From a phage: a stretch of DNA of 64,000 bases. Every line of letters begins with the position of its first letter. The stretch's first letter is position 1. The stretch lies in sequence record OZ346158.1; one strand, 5' to 3'. Positions 18,813 through 29,238 of the stretch are shown here, piece by piece. A program made the translations under genes and the position numbers. The notes beneath the pieces were generated by a model, which searched no databases, was not told the origin of the DNA, and saw only the letters and a list, made by a program, of their open reading frames with translations.

Positions 18813-20294
18813 TTACTTAGCGTACTCGATTAATTCCACAGTTTTACCAAAGCTAGGGATATAATTTTTATTATACCCTTCGGTTAGAACCCATAAAGTA
18901 TCGTACTTTTTCCACTTGTTGTCAACAGCCTTTTGTTCAAAGTTATGCTCAAAGTATAGGTCGGTCAGGACGATGACATCTTTTGCATTTGGTATGTTGG
19001 CATCCAGATACTCGAACACGCAAGCAGCTGTTGTTCCCCATGTTGAGTGGACCTCATAGTTGATCATTTCGTCTATGTTGCCGCGAGTGTATACTTTAAC
19101 CTCTCCAACCTCAGTTGACCAACAGAACATTGTAACCTTAAATTCTTTATACAGATTGCACAATCCGGTGATTTCATTGAACATTTTCTTTAAAGTTCTT
19201 TGAGAGATCGAGCCAGAAACGTCTAAAGCCACCACAATATCTATAGTGTTTTCCGGATTACGACCAGGAACAATAACGTGCTGGTTCTTGTTTATAGCTC
19301 CGACTTTTCGCATTGTGCTGGTCAAAGACCCAGATCGGCGACCAGGTTTTCTGTAGGTCAGTTCGGCCTTTCTTTTAGACAACATACGCTGCTTGATGAT
19401 GTCTATATAATTGATTACAGGCTTACCTCTATTCTTGACAAACTCACGAACCGCCTCAGGGCAACGACCTCCGGAAGCTTGCATTGCTGCCTCAAGCATG
19501 TCACCAGAGTCCTGCATGGCCTGATCTTTATCAGATTGGCTGATTACAGGTTGTGGCTGATCATACCCCATAGCCTTTCCAAGATCATCACTGGTGCCAC
19601 CGTTCCCACTCATGTGATCATCGGTTTGTCGCTTATCTCCTTGAGAGTTCTCACCTTTACCGCTCTTACTTTTACCGTTATTCTGATCTCTTTGCTTATC
19701 AAGAACTGCATAGACGTTCTCAGCAATCCATCCATGAAACTTCATGTCGCAGTAGCAGTTAGCTAAGAAGCCAAAAGGCTTGCCTTTCACGAACGTAGTG
19801 CTTTTCCCCTTCGGGAAGAAAACACAAGGAGGCTTGCTAAAGTCAACCACAAGACCTGTGTTGATAACGTGATCACAAGCAATATTGAACAGTTCCGGCT
19901 CAAAGCTTTTACCACGGACCAGGTGATCACAGATAATATGCCCCACCTCATGTGACAGAAGGAAGGCCACCTCTTTCACAGATTTTGGGGAATAGAAAAC
20001 TTCAGCCATCTCAAACTGCTCGTCAGTTAGAGAAGCCTTAAGAATAGCCTTGCGTTCATCAGCCAATCCCATAATGAACTCAGGGCTGTAATAAATGCGT
20101 TTATGGTCGGTTGCCATGGTGGAGCACCATGTGTGGTTTTCTACGAACTGCAACCCTGACAGCAGTGTGCCATAAAACGGCAGCTTTTCAAGGAGATACA
20201 TACGTGCAGCCTGCAACATTCTCAGGGCATCATCTTTCTGTGAGGCAATGATTTCTGAACTTCTGCTATCCATTAAAACTCCAGAAGGGGCCAT
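18813..20294 (-). CDS. VWA-domain protein with N-terminal putative zinc metallopeptidase motif
   Basis: 493 aa; HExxH motif LSHEVGHIICDH in N-terminal half; VWA MIDAS-like motif VVALDVSGSIS in C-terminal half. Confidence 0.75.
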   Translation of the reverse strand: MAPSGVLMDSRSSEIIASQKDDALRMLQAARMYLLEKLPFYGTLLSGLQFVENHTWCSTMATDHKRIYYSPEFIMGLADERKAILKASLTDEQFEMAEVFYSPKSVKEVAFLLSHEVGHIICDHLVRGKSFEPELFNIACDHVINTGLVVDFSKPPCVFFPKGKSTTFVKGKPFGFLANCYCDMKFHGWIAENVYAVLDKQRDQNNGKSKSGKGENSQGDKRQTDDHMSGNGGTSDDLGKAMGYDQPQPVISQSDKDQAMQDSGDMLEAAMQASGGRCPEAVREFVKNRGKPVINYIDIIKQRMLSKRKAELTYRKPGRRSGSLTSTMRKVGAINKNQHVIVPGRNPENTIDIVVALDVSGSISQRTLKKMFNEITGLCNLYKEFKVTMFCWSTEVGEVKVYTRGNIDEMINYEVHSTWGTTAACVFEYLDANIPNAKDVIVLTDLYFEHNFEQKAVDNKWKKYDTLWVLTEGYNKNYIPSFGKTVELIEYAK

Positions 20295-20306
20295 TGGCCC
20301 CTGTCA

Positions 20307-21350
20307 TTATTTAACGTGTTTGAAAATACCTGCCAACTCGGTCATTGTCATGCGGGTGGTCTTCATAAGATCTGTCATAGCTTTCTCCATAATTGGAGAT
20401 ACTACCATAAAGTTTCCTTTAGTGAAACCTTTATTCCAGTCGGTCACCAACAGTGGTTTAAGTCCAGCTCCGAGACGTTCACCAGTTAAAGCACAGCATT
20501 TGCGAATATACGAACTCTTAAATTGGCTGAACGACAGATCAACTTTCATACCTGCATCGTAGAACGTTTGACAATAGAAAGTGTAAGCCTTAGCAATCTC
20601 AACATCATCAGGCAGTGCAGGAACTTCTTCTGCAATCTCCTCTTCGACCTCCTGAGGATCTTTTTCCTCTTCAGAGTTCTGTTCTTCAATTTCTTCTGCC
20701 ACAGTCTCGTTTACGATGTCTGAAATGTGTTTGTTGGCTGCACGATCAGCCATGAAATTTTTAAAGTCCTGCATTGGTGACATATCTTCCTCCTCTTCGT
20801 CAAATAGTGCTAGTTTATCTTCTTCTGTCCCGTATTGCAAGATGAAATCTTCAAAAGTATAATCACCTTTCAATTTCTCCATACGCTCTTCGCTCAGGTG
20901 GAGCATCATCTGCTGGACAATTTTTCGATCAGTTTTGTCTTTAATCAGGATTGCAGTCTTTTTATCTACCAGACAGTCTTTCAGAGCATTGCACCTCAAC
21001 CCTACCACACAACAATTATCAATTGCGTAAGGACCTTCATCATCTATCCGCTCCAGAGATGGGTAGAAAGGATTTCCCAGTCCGTTTTCATCTGTGTGCA
21101 TGTCGAAAGGTATAAGGGTGTAGTCGCATACCCCCTCCCCTAAAAGTTTTTTACCAAATAGGAGGTATTCTTCCCATGACAGGTCGAACTCTATATCTCG
21201 TTTCCGTGCGTTATTCTGTTTGCGTCTATATTTTTTGAGCAAGCGCTCTAACTCTTCTGGTGTATAATATTTTTCAAGATTCATGAGTCGTCTCTCGTGC
21301 TCTGTAAGTGAAGAAATCGTATCAATTGTCTCAACAGATGTCAACATCAA
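20307..21350 (-). CDS. hypothetical protein with acidic central region; weak HNH/His-Me-finger-like N-terminal pattern
   Basis: 347 aa; N-terminal pattern H.D...G...PSLERID...Y..NC.VV...CN..K; long Glu-rich stretch. Confidence 0.5.
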   Translation of the reverse strand: MMLTSVETIDTISSLTEHERRLMNLEKYYTPEELERLLKKYRRKQNNARKRDIEFDLSWEEYLLFGKKLLGEGVCDYTLIPFDMHTDENGLGNPFYPSLERIDDEGPYAIDNCCVVGLRCNALKDCLVDKKTAILIKDKTDRKIVQQMMLHLSEERMEKLKGDYTFEDFILQYGTEEDKLALFDEEEEDMSPMQDFKNFMADRAANKHISDIVNETVAEEIEEQNSEEEKDPQEVEEEIAEEVPALPDDVEIAKAYTFYCQTFYDAGMKVDLSFSQFKSSYIRKCCALTGERLGAGLKPLLVTDWNKGFTKGNFMVVSPIMEKAMTDLMKTTRMTMTELAGIFKHVK

Positions 21351-21356
21351 AAACGT

Positions 21357-21391
21357 GTTGACTTTACTCTAACTCCACAATATAGTGCACC
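21357..21391 (+). promoter_or_regulatory. sigma70-like promoter (TTGACT-17-TATAGT) in divergent intergenic region
   Basis: gTTGACTttactctaactccacaaTATAGTg about 40 nt upstream of gene 21427. Confidence 0.5.
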
Positions 21392-21426
21392 CATTCGAAA
21401 GAAAACTAACATAGGAGCACTTACTT

Positions 21427-22326
21427 ATGGCAAATCTTAACAGTTTTAGTACGCGGTGGAAACAGGACATAACAACCAATCTTTCAGCTGGGGACATCCT
21501 TTCTGCAATTTACGAGGCTTTAGATGATAAAGCTACTTCAAAAGCGGTTTGTACCAACCCACTAATTCCTGTAGTGATGAAGGTTATTGAGCGTAGATTG
21601 GTATCTGGGTCTGATAAGTGGACATATTTAGATAATGAAGGACACACCTATTCCAATGGGTACGTCGATATAAAAGTAGAATACGCGGTATCATACCGCC
21701 GGAGCGGTTCTGTAACTTTCAACTTCTCTGGAGGTTTTCGATCTCTGGCTACCTCACCTTTTGTTTCCTCAGAGGAGAAGTATGAGCTGCCATTTCTTTG
21801 GATGATGGCTAACGCGACAGGAAAAACCCCCGTTAGCATCCGAGTAAAATACAACTACAACGGATCTAGTAAGATCTATGCCGAAAGTGCCTCAGCAAGT
21901 TTTTATTTTGTGATGGGGGATGGAATCCTCAAACATATAAAGATGTGCGATATGCATGATGTTATAAATGAAGTGACTGATAAGAATGTTCTAGTGAAAG
22001 ACCTCAATAATTTTTATACACCTGGAGACTATTACGTCAACCGCCCACTGTGCATCTTTAATGCCGCACACCCTTTAGGTGAGTATTTGATCGCCAATAG
22101 CGATATTGCCAATAACCGCTTCGAGGTAGCAAGAGTACAGAATGAGGTATTGACATCTTGCAAGAGCGGTGATAAGTTTACCGAAGAAGAGATGGGTGTT
22201 TTAGAAATGATGGGATATAAGTGTAGCCTTTGGGTAGATGAGGTGTTTAATGACTGCATCTATGGACAGGATATTTACCCATTAAAGAAGTATACTGATA
22301 CAAGTTTAATTTATGCGGGGATTTGA
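21427..22326 (+). CDS. hypothetical protein
   Basis: 299-aa ORF, AGGAG RBS. Confidence 0.6.
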   Translation: MANLNSFSTRWKQDITTNLSAGDILSAIYEALDDKATSKAVCTNPLIPVVMKVIERRLVSGSDKWTYLDNEGHTYSNGYVDIKVEYAVSYRRSGSVTFNFSGGFRSLATSPFVSSEEKYELPFLWMMANATGKTPVSIRVKYNYNGSSKIYAESASASFYFVMGDGILKHIKMCDMHDVINEVTDKNVLVKDLNNFYTPGDYYVNRPLCIFNAAHPLGEYLIANSDIANNRFEVARVQNEVLTSCKSGDKFTEEEMGVLEMMGYKCSLWVDEVFNDCIYGQDIYPLKKYTDTSLIYAGI

Positions 22327-22328
22327 CT

Positions 22329-22601
22329 ATGATGAAGGCATGTGGTAATGTATATTACGTCGGTGAACATGTTCAGGCAGACAGTGTGTGGAAATCTATT
22401 AAGTCCACCACTGACGATGCCTTTCTGAGTGGACTATGTTTCCCCAACCCTGGAGACATCCTCCCTCACCCTGGAGATTTTGTTGTTAACAAGATGGACG
22501 GTTATACCGTGTGCCTGATGGTTGAAAAAATCTTTTTAGACACTAGACACAATCACCGTCTTGTGTTAAAATTTCAAGAATGTAAAATGACAATTGCCTA
22601 A
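22329..22601 (+). CDS. hypothetical protein
   Basis: ATG at 22329 (MMKACGNVYY...) after GGGGA; start uncertain. Confidence 0.45.
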   Translation: MMKACGNVYYVGEHVQADSVWKSIKSTTDDAFLSGLCFPNPGDILPHPGDFVVNKMDGYTVCLMVEKIFLDTRHNHRLVLKFQECKMTIA

Positions 22602-22614
22602 GGAGGCCTTACCG

Positions 22615-22971
22615 ATGTCTAAAGTTACTTATCGTGCAGCTATTTACTGCAATGAACACCCAATCAATAATGATGGTCACTGTCTTTTTAAAGAAAATCA
22701 GTTGGGCTGTATTGTCCTCCCTGATGAAGGGAAAGGTTATCTGATTGCATTGACAGGGTTTGAGCCTGAAGCTTTGGAAGCCAATCTGGACTACCTGGTA
22801 GAAGAGGGTGCTGCAGACCTGGTTGCCAATGGCCTCCCCATAAACCTTGACGAAGTGGAGCGCTTCATGGGCAATTACCGTGTAGTGCGTGAGTTTACTA
22901 TCGAGGTTGAAACTCCAGAGTGGGGTAGCTCTGAAACTAATGTCGAAGAAAAAGAAGAGGAGGTAGAATAA
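22615..22971 (+). CDS. hypothetical acidic protein
   Basis: ATG preceded by AAGGAGG RBS. Confidence 0.55.
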   Translation: MSKVTYRAAIYCNEHPINNDGHCLFKENQLGCIVLPDEGKGYLIALTGFEPEALEANLDYLVEEGAADLVANGLPINLDEVERFMGNYRVVREFTIEVETPEWGSSETNVEEKEEEVE

Positions 22972-23228
22972 TGAAAGTTCAGATCTTGACTAATGCCGAG
23001 AAGATGTTTATTGAAGATACACCTTTTGAAGCTGGTGAGCTACAGTTCGTTTATTTTGTTGACTTAGATAAGGTGTTCCCTGCACTGAATCTGGGTCTGG
23101 ATGAAGTTCCTCATAAGGTTTTGTGCCAAGTTGTTCGTGCCTTAGCGGCAGATGGGGAGTTCCACACTTTTGAAGATATCCAGACCTACGGGTATCTTGA
23201 ACTACAACGAGAAGAAGAGGTGGACTGA
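22971..23228 (+). CDS. hypothetical acidic protein
   Basis: 85 aa, GAGGAGG RBS, ATGA overlap. Confidence 0.5.
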   Translation: MKVQILTNAEKMFIEDTPFEAGELQFVYFVDLDKVFPALNLGLDEVPHKVLCQVVRALAADGEFHTFEDIQTYGYLELQREEEVD

Positions 23229-23230
23229 TA

Positions 23231-23611
23231 ATGACCCGGTGGAAGACAACGGTTGACCTGCATGATCAGTGGTTAGGACGCATCACTGAAGACGGGAAAC
23301 TAGTAGAGTGGGACAATAAGCATGTTAGCGAGTTGGCAAGTATTGTGGCTGGCAAGTTACGCTCCAAGTTCCCTGAACAACTGGATCCTGATAATTCAAA
23401 GTTCGATCCTGAGTTGGAGGATGTTGTATACTACTTCGATACCGTGGATGACTACGATGCGTGGTTTGCAGCACGGGAGCTTTACCCCCAAGGCTCTGCT
23501 ATGCGCCAGATGGAAGAAGATTATCCTCCGTGCGAGCAATTTAATAGCGCAATGACTTGCCTCTATGATTGGGCAGATAAGAACCTTGTCTGGATTCGGA
23601 CTGCATTCTAG
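23231..23611 (+). CDS. hypothetical protein
   Basis: 126-aa ORF, GAGGTGG RBS-like. Confidence 0.5.
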   Translation: MTRWKTTVDLHDQWLGRITEDGKLVEWDNKHVSELASIVAGKLRSKFPEQLDPDNSKFDPELEDVVYYFDTVDDYDAWFAARELYPQGSAMRQMEEDYPPCEQFNSAMTCLYDWADKNLVWIRTAF

Positions 23612-23614
23612 CGG

Positions 23615-23920
23615 GTGGTGGCAAGGATGCCACTTAAAAGAGTAATAAACATGTTATACCAGAAACACGAACTTTGTGCAGAAAAAGAGTTAAATTTTGA
23701 CAAAGTTATCCACAGATATTGTTATGGGAAAACCGGAAGACAACTAAGAAGGTGCACTCCAGCATTCTTTCACCCCAGCAGGCGGCTAAGTCCTGAAGAA
23801 GCAACAGCAGAAAGGGTTGCATACAACTGGGAAGTTGTGTACGATATTGACAGATCCGATGTGACATCTGTTTTGGAAAACTTTGAAAACACTTACACAC
23901 AAGTAGAGGATTTTTACTAA
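23615..23920 (+). CDS. hypothetical protein
   Basis: 101-aa ORF; GTG start at 23615 or ATG at 23627 (start uncertain). Confidence 0.4.
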   Translation: MVARMPLKRVINMLYQKHELCAEKELNFDKVIHRYCYGKTGRQLRRCTPAFFHPSRRLSPEEATAERVAYNWEVVYDIDRSDVTSVLENFENTYTQVEDFY

Positions 23921-25104
23921 TGTCAAGAAACGTATTTGAAAGTGGTCAAATCACTGTCCGTGAGTTGCCAGCTATCATTCAGTTTGCCCAGCGTCATAAC
24001 CGATCTGTCCTGATTTTAGGACCAATGGGTGTGGGAAAGAGTCAGGTGATGAAGCAGATCGCTGATAATATGTTCGGTGAGCGAGATGACAACCTGGTTG
24101 ACGTGCGGCTGTCAGATAAAGATCCTGCCGACTTATCTGGGCTACCTATCCCTGTAGAAGCTGATGGAACTACACGTACAGTGTTTGCAATTCCAGAATT
24201 TTGGCCTGCAGATCCGAACTGGAGCGGAATTATCTTTCTGGATGAGCTTACTCATGCAGATAACTATCTGCAAAAGGTTGCAATGCAGATTATGCTCGAC
24301 CACAAGTGCGGCACCTATGCATTCCCTAAAGGCTCTGTTTTTGTGGCTGCGGGTAACCGTTCTACAGATGGTGCTGTTCTTTCGGCGCTCGAAGCTCCTC
24401 TGGCTAACCGCTTTATCATTGTAGAGGTTACAAGCAATGCAGAGGTGTTTATTGAGGACTACGCATTCCTCAACGGGGTTCACTCCTCTGTGATTGGGTA
24501 TCTGAAAAGAGTTCCATCAGCTATTGATAATTATGAGGCTATGGCTGAGATTAATTGTCCATCTTTTGCCACACCACGATCTTGGGTTGCTGCATCTGAC
24601 ATCTTGCACGATTTTGACAGCGGTATTATTTCTGACGCTATGGCCCGTGTTCTTCTGCAAGGTGCTATTGGTCACACTGCAGCGGTAGAGATCTGGACCT
24701 ACCACACCAAGAAACGCAACTTACCGGAAATCGGTCGGATTATGGCAGGGGGTTGCAAAGAATACGTAGGTCCTAAACAGCCGGACATCTTGTGGATTCT
24801 TGGATCTGAAGGTTGTATCGCTATTCGTAATATGATGGAAAATGCAAGTATCTCTGACGAAGATCTTGTTAGCTGTGTGGCAAACTTCCTCGATTTCCTT
24901 TGGGAAAATTTCAAGGACGAGAACCGAGATTTTGTATTCTCAGTCTTTATGGCGATGATGAAACCTAATGCCTTAGGAAATGCCTTGCTTATCGGTAAAG
25001 GGCGTGACAAGATTGTTGCTCAGCTGATTAAAGCATACCCAAACCTGATGAAGATTGTAAAAGAGTTTGGTGAAGAGTTTAGCGCCATTTTGGCTAAAGC
25101 TTGA
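23920..25104 (+). CDS. MoxR-like AAA+ ATPase
   Basis: 394 aa; Walker A LILGPMGVGKSQ, Walker B IIFLDELTHAD, sensor region AAGNRST and RF arginine typical of MoxR/CbbQ-type ATPases. Confidence 0.8.
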   Translation: MSRNVFESGQITVRELPAIIQFAQRHNRSVLILGPMGVGKSQVMKQIADNMFGERDDNLVDVRLSDKDPADLSGLPIPVEADGTTRTVFAIPEFWPADPNWSGIIFLDELTHADNYLQKVAMQIMLDHKCGTYAFPKGSVFVAAGNRSTDGAVLSALEAPLANRFIIVEVTSNAEVFIEDYAFLNGVHSSVIGYLKRVPSAIDNYEAMAEINCPSFATPRSWVAASDILHDFDSGIISDAMARVLLQGAIGHTAAVEIWTYHTKKRNLPEIGRIMAGGCKEYVGPKQPDILWILGSEGCIAIRNMMENASISDEDLVSCVANFLDFLWENFKDENRDFVFSVFMAMMKPNALGNALLIGKGRDKIVAQLIKAYPNLMKIVKEFGEEFSAILAKA

Positions 25105-25503: not shown

Positions 25504-25534
25504 CACCCCCGCTTCGGCGGGGATTTTCTATTTG
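25504..25534 (+). terminator. rho-independent terminator
   Basis: CCCCGC-TTCG-GCGGGG hairpin followed by ATTTTCTATTT. Confidence 0.7.
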
Positions 25535-25542
25535 GAGTTATT

Positions 25543-26043
25543 GTGAAAATTAAGATCTTTGCTATTATTTTGAGCGCATTTTTATCGCTGCCTGTTGTTG
25601 CAGCACCAAAACAAAAAGTATATCATACTTGCAAGCCCTCAGATACTAAGGAAAACATTCTGGCATGCAATATCTACAGGGAGGCTAGAGGGGATGGCAC
25701 GATGGGTATGCTGGCATCAGGGTTTGCCACACTAAACAGGAAATCTCACCCCAAATACCCAGACACTATAAGAAAGATTGTCTACCAACCTAACCAGTTT
25801 TCGTGGACAAACCACGGCAAAACTTTTAAGGTGACAGAAAAAGATTCATGGGATCACGCTAAAAGTCTTGCAAAGATGCTTCTAAAGGTCTATAATAACA
25901 ACCATGTTGCATACATGGCTATGGACATAACAGGTGGAGCAACACACTACCATACAACCAAAGTACGACCGAAATGGGCAAAAAAGATGCAGAGGACAGC
26001 TCAATTCGGGAGTCATATCTACTACAAGGAGCGCAATAAATGA
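25543..26043 (+). CDS. secreted cell-wall hydrolase, SleB-like; candidate endolysin
   Basis: 166 aa; N-terminal signal peptide MKIKIFAIILSAFLSLPVVAAP; CNIYREARGDG and HYHTT resemble the SleB/Hydrolase_2 family; GTG start after GGAG. Confidence 0.7.
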   Translation: MKIKIFAIILSAFLSLPVVAAPKQKVYHTCKPSDTKENILACNIYREARGDGTMGMLASGFATLNRKSHPKYPDTIRKIVYQPNQFSWTNHGKTFKVTEKDSWDHAKSLAKMLLKVYNNNHVAYMAMDITGGATHYHTTKVRPKWAKKMQRTAQFGSHIYYKERNK

Positions 26044-28022
26044 TTGTAAACAGTAATGAAACTAAAGCAGTACTAACCGGAAATATGGAGGTCACCAGGG
26101 GCTCAATTTCTCTGAACAAAGAGACTTTTGGGCTAATCATTAAAGGGATTTACGAAGATAAGGTGCTGGCAAGCTGCCGTGAACCAATCTTCAATGCTGT
26201 GGACTCCCATGTTGAGTCTGGACGGGGTGATGTACCGATCATCATTCACTCCCCTACAGACCTTGAACCATACTTCTTTGTGCAGGACGTTGGATTGGGT
26301 ATGTCAGAAGAGATGGTCCGCAACACTTTCATGAACCTCGGGGAGTCAACCAAGCGCAACAGCAACGCCCTGGTAGGTAATAAAGGTGTAGGTTCAAAGG
26401 CCCCGTTCAGCATGGTGGACACTTTCGATGTGATCAGTGTGCACAACGGTGTTGAAAGCACATATCTATTGTTCTTGGATCAGGGTATCCCAAACGTTAC
26501 CAAGATCCGCGAGCGGAAGACTGAAGAGCACAACGGGGTAAAAGTTCAGTTCCATGTTAAGAAAGAGCATGTTCTGAAATATCGCACTGCTATTGCGTCA
26601 TGCCTCCGCTATGCAAAGTTTCCGTTTACCGTTACCGACCCTATGACCAGTAAGATGCTGGAAGGTGACAAGGTTGAGGCGCAGTATCGCTACGAGAAAG
26701 ATGGTTGGAAAATGACTATCCTGAAAGGTTATACCAGCTCTGATGAGAGCCGTGTTGTGATGGGTCACCAACCTTACCGCTCCAAGTTCCTGGAGACATT
26801 GACCGATTACCCTGCAATCTGCGTGGAAATTCCTATTGGGGATTGCAATATTAACCCTGGGCGTGAATGGACCATAGAGGGACATGACGACGGTGGATTC
26901 CAGGATCGCCTGGAGGCCTTTGTCAAAGAAGGTATACGTCTTCGCGGGGCAGAAGTTGTTGCAGAACTGGAGACGGCAAAAACCTCCGCAGAAGCACGTG
27001 AAATGATGAAGAATAGTGGAGTGTTCGGACACATCTTCGGCAAAAACTTTATGTGGAACCGTTGGGAAGAAACAGGGCTTGGCGACTTAGGCGATTGTGA
27101 AATTTTCGCTGGCGGCTTAAATAAAGGCCGCATAGGCTATGCTCGTTACGGAAAGTCGGAGTTCTTACGAGGTGTATACCTTGTATTTAACGACGGAGAC
27201 GGCAAATATAACCGGAATAAGTGTAACTACTTAAGCGAGATCACCGGACGCAACGTTTTCTATTGCCGGAACACGGATCTGGTGAAAGAGTTTAAAGAGG
27301 CGGCACACCATCCGTTCTTTGCAGATACGGTCAAATTGTTATCGGAGCTTCCACGCCGACCTGCGAAGAAAGGTGAAACCAAAACTCGTTACGAGCCAGG
27401 CTACTGGGTTAAGAAGCTTAGAGAGGATGGCTACTTCCATCGTGAGCGCCTCACGAAGGCAGAGTTCAAGAAGATTAAGCATTGCATCCCTTATGAGGGG
27501 GATATCCAACGGGGAAGCTGCTGGCTGGGCCAGATGAGTAACATCTACCAGCAAAATTATGACCGTGTGCGTGCTGCACTCCAGATTCCTGAAGGTGAAG
27601 ATCTGTACCTGGTATCAGAATCTCGTCTGCTTTGGACTGATCCTGATTGCCAGTATGTTACAGAGAAGAATGTGGAACATTTGTTGAAAGAGGATGCTTG
27701 GAAATTCTTACTGACTCGCGCAGCAAATGAAACTTCATATGACAGCCTGTATAGACAATTAGGGAAAATTATCCCCATGCAGGATTTTGGAAATTATCGG
27801 CCACATTTCCACAAGTGGGAAGGTAACACCGCGTGGAAGCACAGTGAGCTAAATCATCGTGCCAAAATCTTAATCGCCAACCGAGTTAAATGCGGGAAGG
27901 CCTATATTGCAAGATTGGAAAAGAAATACCCACTTTTGAAGCATGTAGGCTTGAAATATTGGGACACCCCTGCTATGATTGAATACCGTGAGCTGATTGA
28001 TACAAAGAATAACACCAAATAA
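26040..28022 (+). CDS. GHKL-type (Bergerat-fold) ATPase domain protein, 660 aa
   Basis: N-terminal motifs in order: N-box REPIFNAVDSH, G1 FVQDVGLGMS, G2 GNKGVGSKAPF; no TOPRIM or His-kinase domain apparent. Confidence 0.6.
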   Translation: MIVNSNETKAVLTGNMEVTRGSISLNKETFGLIIKGIYEDKVLASCREPIFNAVDSHVESGRGDVPIIIHSPTDLEPYFFVQDVGLGMSEEMVRNTFMNLGESTKRNSNALVGNKGVGSKAPFSMVDTFDVISVHNGVESTYLLFLDQGIPNVTKIRERKTEEHNGVKVQFHVKKEHVLKYRTAIASCLRYAKFPFTVTDPMTSKMLEGDKVEAQYRYEKDGWKMTILKGYTSSDESRVVMGHQPYRSKFLETLTDYPAICVEIPIGDCNINPGREWTIEGHDDGGFQDRLEAFVKEGIRLRGAEVVAELETAKTSAEAREMMKNSGVFGHIFGKNFMWNRWEETGLGDLGDCEIFAGGLNKGRIGYARYGKSEFLRGVYLVFNDGDGKYNRNKCNYLSEITGRNVFYCRNTDLVKEFKEAAHHPFFADTVKLLSELPRRPAKKGETKTRYEPGYWVKKLREDGYFHRERLTKAEFKKIKHCIPYEGDIQRGSCWLGQMSNIYQQNYDRVRAALQIPEGEDLYLVSESRLLWTDPDCQYVTEKNVEHLLKEDAWKFLLTRAANETSYDSLYRQLGKIIPMQDFGNYRPHFHKWEGNTAWKHSELNHRAKILIANRVKCGKAYIARLEKKYPLLKHVGLKYWDTPAMIEYRELIDTKNNTK

Positions 28023-28032
28023 GGAGACAGTT

Positions 28033-29238
28033 ATGATTTTCATCTACGAACACTTCAAAACTCGTAAAGAAGCACGCGACCGCCGTGCAGAACTTGAGAA
28101 GAAGGGTTTCACATGTGCCATTGAGAAAGGCGACACAACCTGGACACTGGCAGTTGGTGCCCCAGAGTTGTTCGATCCTGACCGTGACAGCGTCTGCTAC
28201 ACCCGTGAGGATTTTGAAACCCGTGAAGAGGCCCGTCTATTTCGATATGGGCTGGAAGATAATGGTAAGTACGCCATGATCTTAGACTTAGGCGAAGGTT
28301 CCGTTAAACGTTGGGGCGTGGTATACCCACTGTGTGTTGTTCACGGTGTGGGGTTCACTGGGGTGGCAATCAAGTCAGAAGAACCTTTAGTAGAAGTCAA
28401 AGACCCGGTGCTGGAGGTGGTGAGCAGTGTGTCTCAGCAACAGACTCGAAGCATCGAGCCTTTAGTAGTTATTTGTGGGGAACTCCTCCAGATCACCTGC
28501 AACGAAGGCATTTTTGAAATTCGCCGCAGCGAAAGTGAGGAAGTTTACCAGAAAGTCTTCGACCATATCTCTGTTCAGGAATATGATGAGGCAATTGGTG
28601 AAATCCTTGTCTGGCTGGAACGCAAGAATGAGTTCACCACACTTGCAGACAACCTGATCATGAAAGATGGTAAGCTCTACTACTACGGTGTAGAGATGCG
28701 ATCCACCATTGCAAAGAAAATTGAGAAAGACTATGCAGACGGAACACTGGATGACCGCTATGTGAAATTCCTCGTTCGCCTGCTACGCAATCCTTCTGCA
28801 AAATCTGTAAACATGCTCTACGATTTTATGCAGGCCAACGATATCCAGATTGCAGAAGATGGTCGAATCATTTGCTACAAAGGGGTTCAGTTTAACGGCA
28901 GCAAGTGGGTGGATTGGCACAGTGGTAAAGTTCCACAATACCAGGGTGCTTTTGTATCCATGCCTCGTAACTTTGTAGAGGATGATCCTGAAGCTGCGTG
29001 CTCCTATGGCTTACACTGCGCCAGCAAGGAGTATGCAAAGAGCTACGGCACTGTAATGACTGTCATGGTTGACCCTGCAGATGTGGTTAGTGTGCCATAC
29101 CAACACAATAGCGCTAAGTGCCGTGCATGCCGCTATGAGATTGTGGTAGCTCCGGAAGCACGCAAGGACGGAGACCCGATTGAATACGTGGTTGACCGAG
29201 ACGGTAACACTATCGACATTCTTTACGAGGAGGCGTAA
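28033..29238 (+). CDS. hypothetical protein
   Basis: ATG at 28033 preceded by AAGGAGA RBS (longer ORF start at 27997 overlaps upstream gene). Confidence 0.55.
   Translation: MIFIYEHFKTRKEARDRRAELEKKGFTCAIEKGDTTWTLAVGAPELFDPDRDSVCYTREDFETREEARLFRYGLEDNGKYAMILDLGEGSVKRWGVVYPLCVVHGVGFTGVAIKSEEPLVEVKDPVLEVVSSVSQQQTRSIEPLVVICGELLQITCNEGIFEIRRSESEEVYQKVFDHISVQEYDEAIGEILVWLERKNEFTTLADNLIMKDGKLYYYGVEMRSTIAKKIEKDYADGTLDDRYVKFLVRLLRNPSAKSVNMLYDFMQANDIQIAEDGRIICYKGVQFNGSKWVDWHSGKVPQYQGAFVSMPRNFVEDDPEAACSYGLHCASKEYAKSYGTVMTVMVDPADVVSVPYQHNSAKCRACRYEIVVAPEARKDGDPIEYVVDRDGNTIDILYEEA

Follow-up and report, generated by a model that had tools for sequence, protein, structure and literature searches.

The phage sequence record OZ346158.1 was analyzed over a stretch of 64,000 nucleotides (the window), and this report concerns a 6.3-kb region of it, positions 18813 to 25104, that encodes a MoxR-type AAA+ ATPase on the plus strand and, on the minus strand, a protein combining a putative zinc-peptidase domain with a VWA-like domain (the VWA protein). 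Together the two genes form a two-gene module that is the same as gp24/gp25 of phage N4. With moderate confidence, we conclude that their products constitute one cognate two-component machine, that its genes were split by an inversion, and that it would act on an intracellular target during infection rather than in virion maturation.

The region was 99.4% identical to Escherichia phage nom, which assigned it to Vequintavirus (rV5-like coliphages), and 96-98% identical to about 120 other phages of this group. In nom, the minus-strand gene is annotated as "metallopeptidase" and the plus-strand gene as "ATPase (MoxR ATPase)." Part of the picture is already known. rV5 gp4 was labeled "MoxR - ATPase" and gp12 "DUF2201_N" in 2013 (PMC3606486), and a report of 2021 on jumbo phages described a MoxR-vWA-metallopeptidase pair. 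The present analysis adds the explicit link between the rV5-like genes and the N4/jumbo-phage module, the reading of the split layout as a clade-specific inversion, the finding that co-occurrence persists despite complete unlinking, and the suggestion that a conserved RPxRR element might serve as a finger for the ATPase pore.

The ATPase Belongs to the MoxR Class

Both open reading frames (ORFs) were present where a first-pass annotation, made from the sequence of the window alone, had placed them (18813-20294 on the minus strand and 23920-25104 on the plus strand). The spacing of 3.6 kb and the opposite orientation given there were also confirmed, and the genes diverge from the intergenic region 21350/21427. 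As listed in Table 1, the ATPase contains Walker A, Walker B, sensor 1, arginine finger, and sensor 2 elements, i.e. the complete AAA+ module. The Walker motifs, Asn146, Arg147, Arg164, and Arg220 were invariant or nearly so in 127 homologues, with Lys40, Asp108, Glu109, Asn146, Arg164, and Arg220 essentially invariant. The protein matched PHROG 1297 ("ATPase") with an E value of 9e-111. A homologue search returned thousands of sequences, and homologues at 31-35% identity (E ~1e-44) carry AAA_3 (PF07726, the MoxR domain) plus AAA_5 (PF07728).

When the single sequence was searched against the Protein Data Bank (PDB), only P-loop matches were obtained. With a profile of 25 homologues, the midasin/Rea1 AAA ring was matched at 1.9e-15, and Clp and p97 ranked behind it. 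In the AlphaFold model (predicted local distance difference test, pLDDT, of 80.7), a hairpin at residues 75-88 following strand 2 corresponds to the helix-2 insert, and a pre-sensor-1 hairpin (residues 129-134) precedes strand 4. The best PDB matches of the model in Foldseek were NorQ, NorQ-NorD, and CbbQ2, all of the MoxR class, with a target-normalized template modeling score of about 0.6. Because transitive homology, the midasin profile match, and the model and fold comparison agreed, the MoxR assignment proposed in the first-pass annotation was accepted, the protein's own Pfam scores lying below the thresholds. PADLOC and NCBIfam models yielded no significant match for either protein (the ATPase reached only P-loop-level matches and the VWA protein had none), and assignment to a known defense or anti-defense system was rejected on this ground.

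The Partner Combines a Putative Zincin Domain with a VWA-like Domain

The open frame of the VWA gene reaches 20294 and spans 493 codons. Its true start is probably Met8 at 20273, because a GGAG Shine-Dalgarno sequence is located 5 nt upstream, nom is annotated from 20273, and homologues begin there; the 486-residue cluster P0001, like nom, has the shorter form. The gene is the orthologue of rV5 gp12(+13) and of N4 gp25. Its product carries the motif LSHEVGHIICDH at residues 113-124 and VVALDVSGSIS at residues 354-364. DUF2201_N ("putative metallopeptidase domain"; residues 95-321, E = 3.4e-28, 99.5 bits, cut-off 23.2) and DUF2201 ("VWA-like domain"; residues 353-488, E = 3.6e-11, 43.7 bits, cut-off 26.4) followed each other in the N-to-C order expected for the family, both above the gathering threshold. 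The combination of an HExxH motif with a motif resembling a metal ion-dependent adhesion site (MIDAS), pointed out in the first-pass annotation, was borne out, the residues of both motifs being intact.

In the structural model of the protein (pLDDT 84), the N-terminal domain was helical and bore HExxH on helix 106-121, and the C-terminal alpha/beta domain was minimal, the DUF2201 VWA-like domain comprising about 135 residues. The DxSxS...T...D motif was carried on this Rossmann-like VWA fold. A profile of the protein gave weak matches to minigluzincin MJ1213, BepA, and HtpX around HExxH, the Pfam M48 match around the same motif was weak, and a single-sequence PDB search returned no matches. 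The putative zincin assignment rests mainly on Pfam and the motif. His124 and Asp141 are conserved candidates for a third zinc ligand.

Among 37 homologues with a mean identity of 28%, His115, Glu116, His119, His124, Ala139, and Asp141 were invariant, as were Asp358, Ser360, Gly361, Ser362, Gly420, Thr421, and Asp445 on the MIDAS side. A larger set anchored on the VWA gene comprised 134 loci (31 window-related viral contigs, 16 N4-like viral contigs, 80 bacterial genomes, and a few others), the searches for related loci having been run with subfamily alignments. His119, His124, and Asn145 were invariant in these loci; Asp358, Ser360, Ser362, and Thr421 were present in 134/134 and Asp445 in 133/134. 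HExxH was intact in 49/49 viral and 71/84 bacterial copies. The DUF2201 family as a whole counted 33,529 cluster representatives at E ≤ 1e-3.

The Two Genes Co-occur Even When Unlinked

An ATPase homologue was found in 126 of the 134 VWA-anchored loci. Seven of the remaining eight had an upstream flank of <1 kb, at which the contig ended, and were untestable. The eighth, L015, was rejected as a genome lacking the ATPase, which was found elsewhere on the same 136-kb contig (L145). Conversely, 32 of 33 ATPase-anchored loci had a VWA gene nearby, and the 33rd was again this contig. Over all testable loci in both directions, co-occurrence was 159/159. The first-pass annotation had stated that MoxR ATPases normally work with a VWA partner; as a genomic association this held in every testable locus, with the genes adjacent outside the rV5-like clade, and the two families do co-occur in related genomes. 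GenBank phage genus counts were near-equal for the two proteins (Escherichia 212/214, Pseudomonas 104/108, Pectobacterium 26/26, Cronobacter 17/17, and Achromobacter 17/17). Pairwise identities of the two proteins correlated with r = 0.98 in viruses and r = 0.96 in the clade with the split layout, as is partly expected from shared genome phylogeny.

The L015/L145 contig (IMGVR_UViG_3300045988_163358) is Vequintavirinae-like and 136 kb in length. Its VWA gene lies at ~103.4-104.9 kb and its ATPase gene at ~4.2-5.4 kb on the same strand, i.e. 98 kb apart, or ~36 kb if the genome is circularly permuted (at least 35 kb). It was the only fully unlinked pair among the loci examined.

These data bear on the possibility that the genes are functionally unrelated here, the ATPase working with another partner or alone and the VWA/peptidase protein independently. 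The separate transcription units 3.6 kb apart, the pair at least 35 kb apart in one related phage, and the promoter P4 that rV5 annotates just upstream of the ATPase would all fit such independence. Opposed to it are the co-occurrence in every testable locus both ways, including the split and unlinked cases, and the divergences of the two proteins, which are equal and tightly correlated in the split clade. The catalytic and MIDAS residues are all kept in both partners, and the surroundings of the ATPase gene showed no further VWA gene. We regard functional independence as very improbable. Inversion, or separation over at least 35 kb, can evidently break the linkage while both partners are retained, and such retention is strong comparative evidence that the proteins work together. 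Among the neighbors in the window, no third partner or client gene conserved across groups was found, the Srd-like gene described below being linked only in the split clade.

The Divergent Layout Is Best Read as an Inversion

In bacteria, the ATPase gene immediately precedes the VWA gene, both on one strand, with gaps mostly of 0-300 nt and of ~1.9 kb in three loci. Both genes were present in 17/17 N4-like loci, adjacent in 16 and separated by a 1.5-kb gap in one. The same order on one strand was found in large uncultured marine phages and in cyanophage S-TIM5; in some other viral contigs 1-2 kb of inserted genes lie between the pair. In the CR8/PBES02/CB7-like relatives, whose proteins are 34-36% identical to those of the window, the ATPase gene likewise comes first and the two genes share a strand (gaps up to 536 nt). 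The divergent layout on opposite strands, with a gap of 2.0-5.1 kb, was confined to the clade at least 39% identical to the window, i.e. rV5-like phages, Seunavirus, and Klebsiella/Raoultella/Erwinia phages. The arrangement, called unusual in the first-pass annotation, is unusual relative to other lineages only; within the rV5/Seunavirus-like group it is the rule.

Because the genes are adjacent in bacteria, N4-like phages, and CR8/CB7-like phages and divergent only in the ≥39% clade, the parsimonious reading is that a single lineage-specific inversion with one breakpoint between the genes would have split an ancestral ATPase-VWA operon.

Relation to Phage Modules and the Question of Virion Assembly

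N4 gp24/gp25, which belongs to the Schitoviridae core, has the same domain pair, with the ATPase upstream of the VWA gene. In tblastn searches, the window proteins matched "gp24-like" and "N4 gp25-like" genes at 20-27% identity (E values of 1e-10 to 1e-20). Homology of both proteins together with linkage, judged on the N4-like loci, made the pair a member of the gp24/gp25 module. The systems differ in that the N4-like genes are adjacent on one strand, whereas those of the window diverge at a distance of 3.6 kb. In addition, the rV5-like VWA proteins have clade-specific insertions of ~40 residues before HExxH and ~20 residues in the linker. In N4, gp24 (AAA) and gp25 (vWFA) are middle-class transcripts (PMC4193335), and they are two of the 14 N4-like core genes, with no assigned function (PMC4193335, PMC2784036).

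Jumbo phages resembling RaK2, GAP32, and PA5oct were matched by both window proteins at 23-30% identity. The MoxR-vWA architecture with an N-terminal metallopeptidase reported for group 2.2 jumbo phages (PMC7824862) is the same, and its description fits the window pair. For those phages, roles in assembly and proteolytic processing were proposed by analogy with p618/p892 of Acidianus two-tailed virus (ATV) (Iyer et al. 2021, PMC7824862). Applied to the window, the MoxR-vWA pair would aid head or tail assembly and the metallopeptidase would trim structural proteins. In ATV, p618 (MoxR) binds the VWA protein p892 as well as tail proteins, and both interaction and stimulation of ATPase activity were demonstrated for this viral pair (PMC4124505). 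Hsp20 adjoins the pair in cyanophage S-TIM5, which would also suit an assembly function. However, p618/p892 are virion components of an archaeal virus without a peptidase domain, and no sequence link between them and the window proteins was detected in this analysis. The window phage differs from the group 2.2 phages in its 136-kb, non-jumbo genome, its split layout, and a context that disfavors virion assembly, the two genes being located outside the structural block, with small ORFan, Srd-like, and rIIA/rIIB genes around them and predicted sigma-70-type promoters in front. In Table S3 of the rV5 study, gp4 and gp12 bear no mass spectrometry mark, and neither is named among the detected virion proteins in the proteomics section (PMC3606486). 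The middle-class transcription of N4 gp24/gp25 likewise speaks against a virion role, as does the position of the pair, repeatedly beside nucleotide-metabolism genes (PMC2784036): recurrent neighbors were a 5'-3' exonuclease, the thymidylate synthases ThyA/ThyX, MazG, and dCMP deaminase. So do the close bacterial homologues, which are chromosomal and non-prophage, near genes for thioredoxin, Hsp15, ferrochelatase, and Lon. Assembly and maturation are therefore an unlikely task of the pair. Since the gene context is early or middle, the neighbors serve nucleotide metabolism and replication, and the bacterial homologues lie outside prophages, the machine that we favor would act on an intracellular target.

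Bacterial Homologues and a Possible Insertase Function

The bacterial counterpart is an operon of an AAA_5 (MoxR-like) gene immediately upstream of a DUF2201_N/DUF2201 gene (Sulfurivermis fontis, Thioalkalivibrio, and Thiobacillus), with 20-31% identity to the window proteins and the same motifs. It differs from the phage pair in its housekeeping-like chromosomal context (thioredoxin, Hsp15, and ferrochelatase) and in the loss of HExxH in some lineages. In the Sulfurivermis/Thiohalomonas-like loci L002 and L003, thioredoxin and Hsp15 genes precede the pair, which is followed by a gene for a conserved 370-residue protein without a Pfam match and then by that for ferrochelatase; this order may hint at a client in bacteria.

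A small-genome subclade of gammaproteobacterial metagenome-assembled genomes has AKQALH in place of HExxH (among loci L101-L108, L111, L113, L115, L095, and L096). Two of these loci have AREALH and two more HDxxH; MIDAS, His119, His124, Asp141, and the adjacent ATPase are kept. These loci apparently represent peptidase-dead versions of the module.

The bacterial loci invite a different interpretation, in which the pair would be a metal-cofactor insertase or a pure remodeling chaperone comparable with NorQD, CobST, and MxaR that serves a phage or host metalloenzyme; its His/Asp cluster would bind a metal to be delivered instead of catalyzing proteolysis. The closest solved folds, NorQ-NorD and CbbQ, insert metal or reactivate an enzyme; the KQxxH and RExxH subclades retain His119, His124, Asp141, Asn145, MIDAS, and the ATPase neighbor; ferrochelatase is a conserved neighbor in Thiohalomonas-like bacteria; and rV5 encodes both aerobic and anaerobic ribonucleotide reductases (PMC3606486). 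This interpretation is at odds with the catalytic Glu of HExxH, which is intact in all viral and most bacterial copies, as counted above, and with the placement of the domain among metallopeptidases by Pfam and the weak M48 match. Furthermore, no candidate client enzyme is conserved beside the pair across groups. We consider an insertase or chaperone role improbable.

Proposed Mode of Action

NorQ-NorD, CbbQ-CbbO, RavA-ViaA, and midasin were the best structural matches of the ATPase model and were also among the matches of the VWA protein. They combine an AAA+ ring with helix-2 inserts and a MIDAS-bearing VWA adaptor, as predicted for the window pair. Sequence identity to the window pair is 15-22%. 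Their VWA partners have no zincin domain, and their clients are cNOR, Rubisco, fumarate reductase/Nuo, and pre-60S particles. In NorQ-NorD, a finger of the VWA domain reaches into a pore made up by the helix-2 inserts, and rotation driven by ATP remodels the linker and the client; the authors propose this mode as general for AAA+/VWA pairs (PMC13036017).

By analogy with the NorD finger (PMC13036017), a basic element between the peptidase and VWA domains of the window protein (family consensus RPxRR) is a candidate finger for the ATPase pore. Its Arg320 was conserved in 133/134 loci and Arg319 in 105/134. In the model, the element lies just before the VWA domain, flanked by short strands (312-315 and 342-345) of lower pLDDT. 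The helix-2 insert of the ATPase contains an invariant acidic residue, Asp71.

By analogy with NorQ-NorD, CbbQ-CbbO, and midasin, the following sequence of events can be proposed. Each gene is placed in one arm of a divergent unit with predicted back-to-back sigma-70-type promoters, and both products would probably be made together early in infection. The ATPase would form a hexameric ring. The partner would dock on this ring through its VWA domain, possibly with the basic RPxRR hairpin inserted in a pore lined by the acidic helix-2 insert, and the MIDAS site would grip an acidic residue of the target protein. ATP-driven movement would then remodel the target, and the fused zincin domain might cut it. 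It is possible, though we hold it to be rather doubtful, that the module represents a new functional type of ATP-driven, MIDAS-targeted protease that cuts a specific host or phage protein in early or mid infection. If so, targeted cleavage could serve host takeover, anti-defense, or replication control, the RPxRR finger would couple a MoxR ring to a zincin, and a function would be gained for two of the 14 N4-like core genes and for a bacterial family with >30,000 cluster representatives. The module is among the few that are common to N4-like phages (as core genes), rV5-like phages, several jumbo groups, uncultured marine phages, and many bacteria. rV5-like coliphages infect Escherichia coli K-12 (BASEL collection, phage nom) and may offer a tractable system for finding the substrate.

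Several points weigh against the proposed cognate machine or parts of it. The ATPase alone missed the Pfam threshold (AAA_5, 16.8 bits versus a cut-off of 22, E = 0.007; AAA_3, no match). VWA matches dominated both fold searches, which were made with the whole partner protein. HExxH is replaced by KQxxH, RExxH, or HDxxH in 13/84 bacterial homologues, which yet keep His119, His124, Asp141, Asn145, MIDAS, and the ATPase neighbor; proteolysis is thus not universally required. The promoter assignments are consensus matches only, and part of the correlated divergence is phylogenetic, as stated above. In the literature on DUF2201, COG3864, and rV5 plus MoxR, no functional study of the pair in any phage was found, in line with the first-pass annotation, which assigned no substrate. 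Finally, the rV5 reference (NC_011041, L168, 5257-6718, equivalent to window positions 18813-20273) has a 1-nt insertion after codon 423 (CAGCTG-T-CTTGCG, non-homopolymer), which splits the gene into gp12 (441 residues) and gp13 (81 residues) with loss of the last MIDAS Asp. The insertion may be a sequencing error or a real truncation; if real, the gene may be dispensable in the laboratory.

Neighboring Genes, Promoters, and Terminator

TABLE 1. Positions of the two genes, their motifs, and surrounding elements in the window
Feature	Position	Strand	Remark
VWA gene: DUF2201_N (zincin-like, HExxH) + DUF2201 (VWA-like, MIDAS)	18813..20273	-	486 aa from likely start
MIDAS: D358-x-S360-x-S362 (19209-19223), T421 (19032-19034), D445 (18960-18962)	18960..19223	-	VWA-like domain
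Basic linker R-K-P-G-R319-R320 (family consensus RPxRR)	19335..19352	-	between peptidase and VWA domains
Conserved D141 + N145	~19860-19872	-	next helix after the zinc-site motif
Predicted zinc site H115-E116-x-x-H119-x-x-x-x-H124 (HEVGHIICDH)	19923..19952	-	N-terminal domain
GC-rich palindromic hairpin AGGGGCC-AAT-GGCCCCT (on - strand)	20286..20302	.	7-bp; between Srd-like gene and VWA gene
Srd-like "anti-sigma factor" gene (rV5 gp11)	20307..21350	-	first of leftward unit; directly upstream of VWA gene
Back-to-back sigma-70-like promoters	21316..21386	.	consensus scan, 10/12 matches each
Leftward promoter TTGACA-17-TACGAT	21344->21316	-	TG-extended
Rightward promoter TTGACT-17-TATAGT	21358-21386	+	
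Six ORFan genes (299, 92, 125, 85, 126, 101 aa)	21427..23920	+	precede ATPase in rightward unit
MoxR-class AAA+ ATPase gene	23920..25104	+	394 aa; orthologue of rV5 gp4 and N4 gp24
ATPase Walker A GPMGVGKS	24019-24042	+	residues 34-41
ATPase helix-2 insert	~24109-24219	+	
ATPase Walker B D108/E109	24241-24246	+	
ATPase sensor-1 N146/R147	24355-24360	+	
ATPase R164	24409-24411	+	
ATPase sensor-2 R220	24577-24579	+	
Intrinsic-terminator-like hairpin CCCCGCTTCGGCGGGG + T-run	25507..25522	+	ends rightward unit one gene past ATPase

The Srd-like gene matched PHROGs 3118, 4592, and 1400; its true start is probably internal (rV5 annotates 311 residues). In 21/21 loci of divergent layout it was the immediate upstream neighbor of the VWA gene, and the other groups lacked it. 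Between its stop (20307) and the likely VWA start (20273) lies the hairpin 20286-20302, whose loop holds the in-frame upstream ATG at 20294; a role in attenuation or RNA stability is possible.

The -35 boxes of both predicted promoters fall within one palindrome (21340-21362, GTCAACA...TGTTGAC). Both arms could be under the control of one protein binding this palindrome, or of the Srd-like product through an action on sigma-70. For rV5, bidirectional promoters lying between gene 10 and gene 11 as well as transcription units 10-1-238-164 and 11-26 were described (Kropinski et al., PMC3606486), and the rV5 record annotates, besides P4, a promoter P11 at the point of divergence.

The six ORFans matched no Pfam family and only PHROGs of unknown function, were kept only among close relatives, and are outside the conserved module. 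The last of them, the 101-residue ORF 23615-23920, which overlaps the ATPase start by one base, is labeled "ATPase / MoxR ATPase" in nom, in rV5 (gp5), and in PHROG 13164. It was rejected as a component, having no AAA motif or Pfam match and occurring only in close relatives; the label looks like a carry-over from the neighboring gene. The first ORFan (21427-22326, rV5 gp10) is annotated as "putative alpha 1-3 fucosyltransferase," a name that in the rV5 note rests on likeness to the C terminus of a bovine fucosyltransferase. With no Pfam match and only PHROG 12338, of unknown function, this annotation seems unsupported.

The label "HNH endonuclease" is attached both to PHROG 1314, which is the DUF2201 metallopeptidase/VWA family, and to the Srd-like family, PHROG 3118; it has spread to numerous phage entries in RefSeq, among them those of rV5 gp11 and gp12. 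No feature of the VWA protein supported an HNH nuclease, and the present result flags a widespread mis-annotation of the DUF2201 family in RefSeq phage records. Other database labels for the VWA protein were "DNA repair ATPase" in one record and "virion RNA polymerase" in another.

Sixteen GenBank records of "Campylobacter phage" (MG0656xx; host Campylobacter jejuni) were 96-98% identical to the E. coli rV5-like phages over the region studied. Their host assignment looks doubtful, or phage stocks were mixed.

Downstream of the ATPase unit, three genes occupy positions 25543-29238. One encodes a cell-wall hydrolase of the SleB type (Hydrolase_2, E = 2e-19) whose N terminus has a hydrophobic segment; the other two are rIIA-like (HATPase_c_3) and rIIB-like. 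In 5/17 N4-like loci, rIIA-like genes also lie near the pair.

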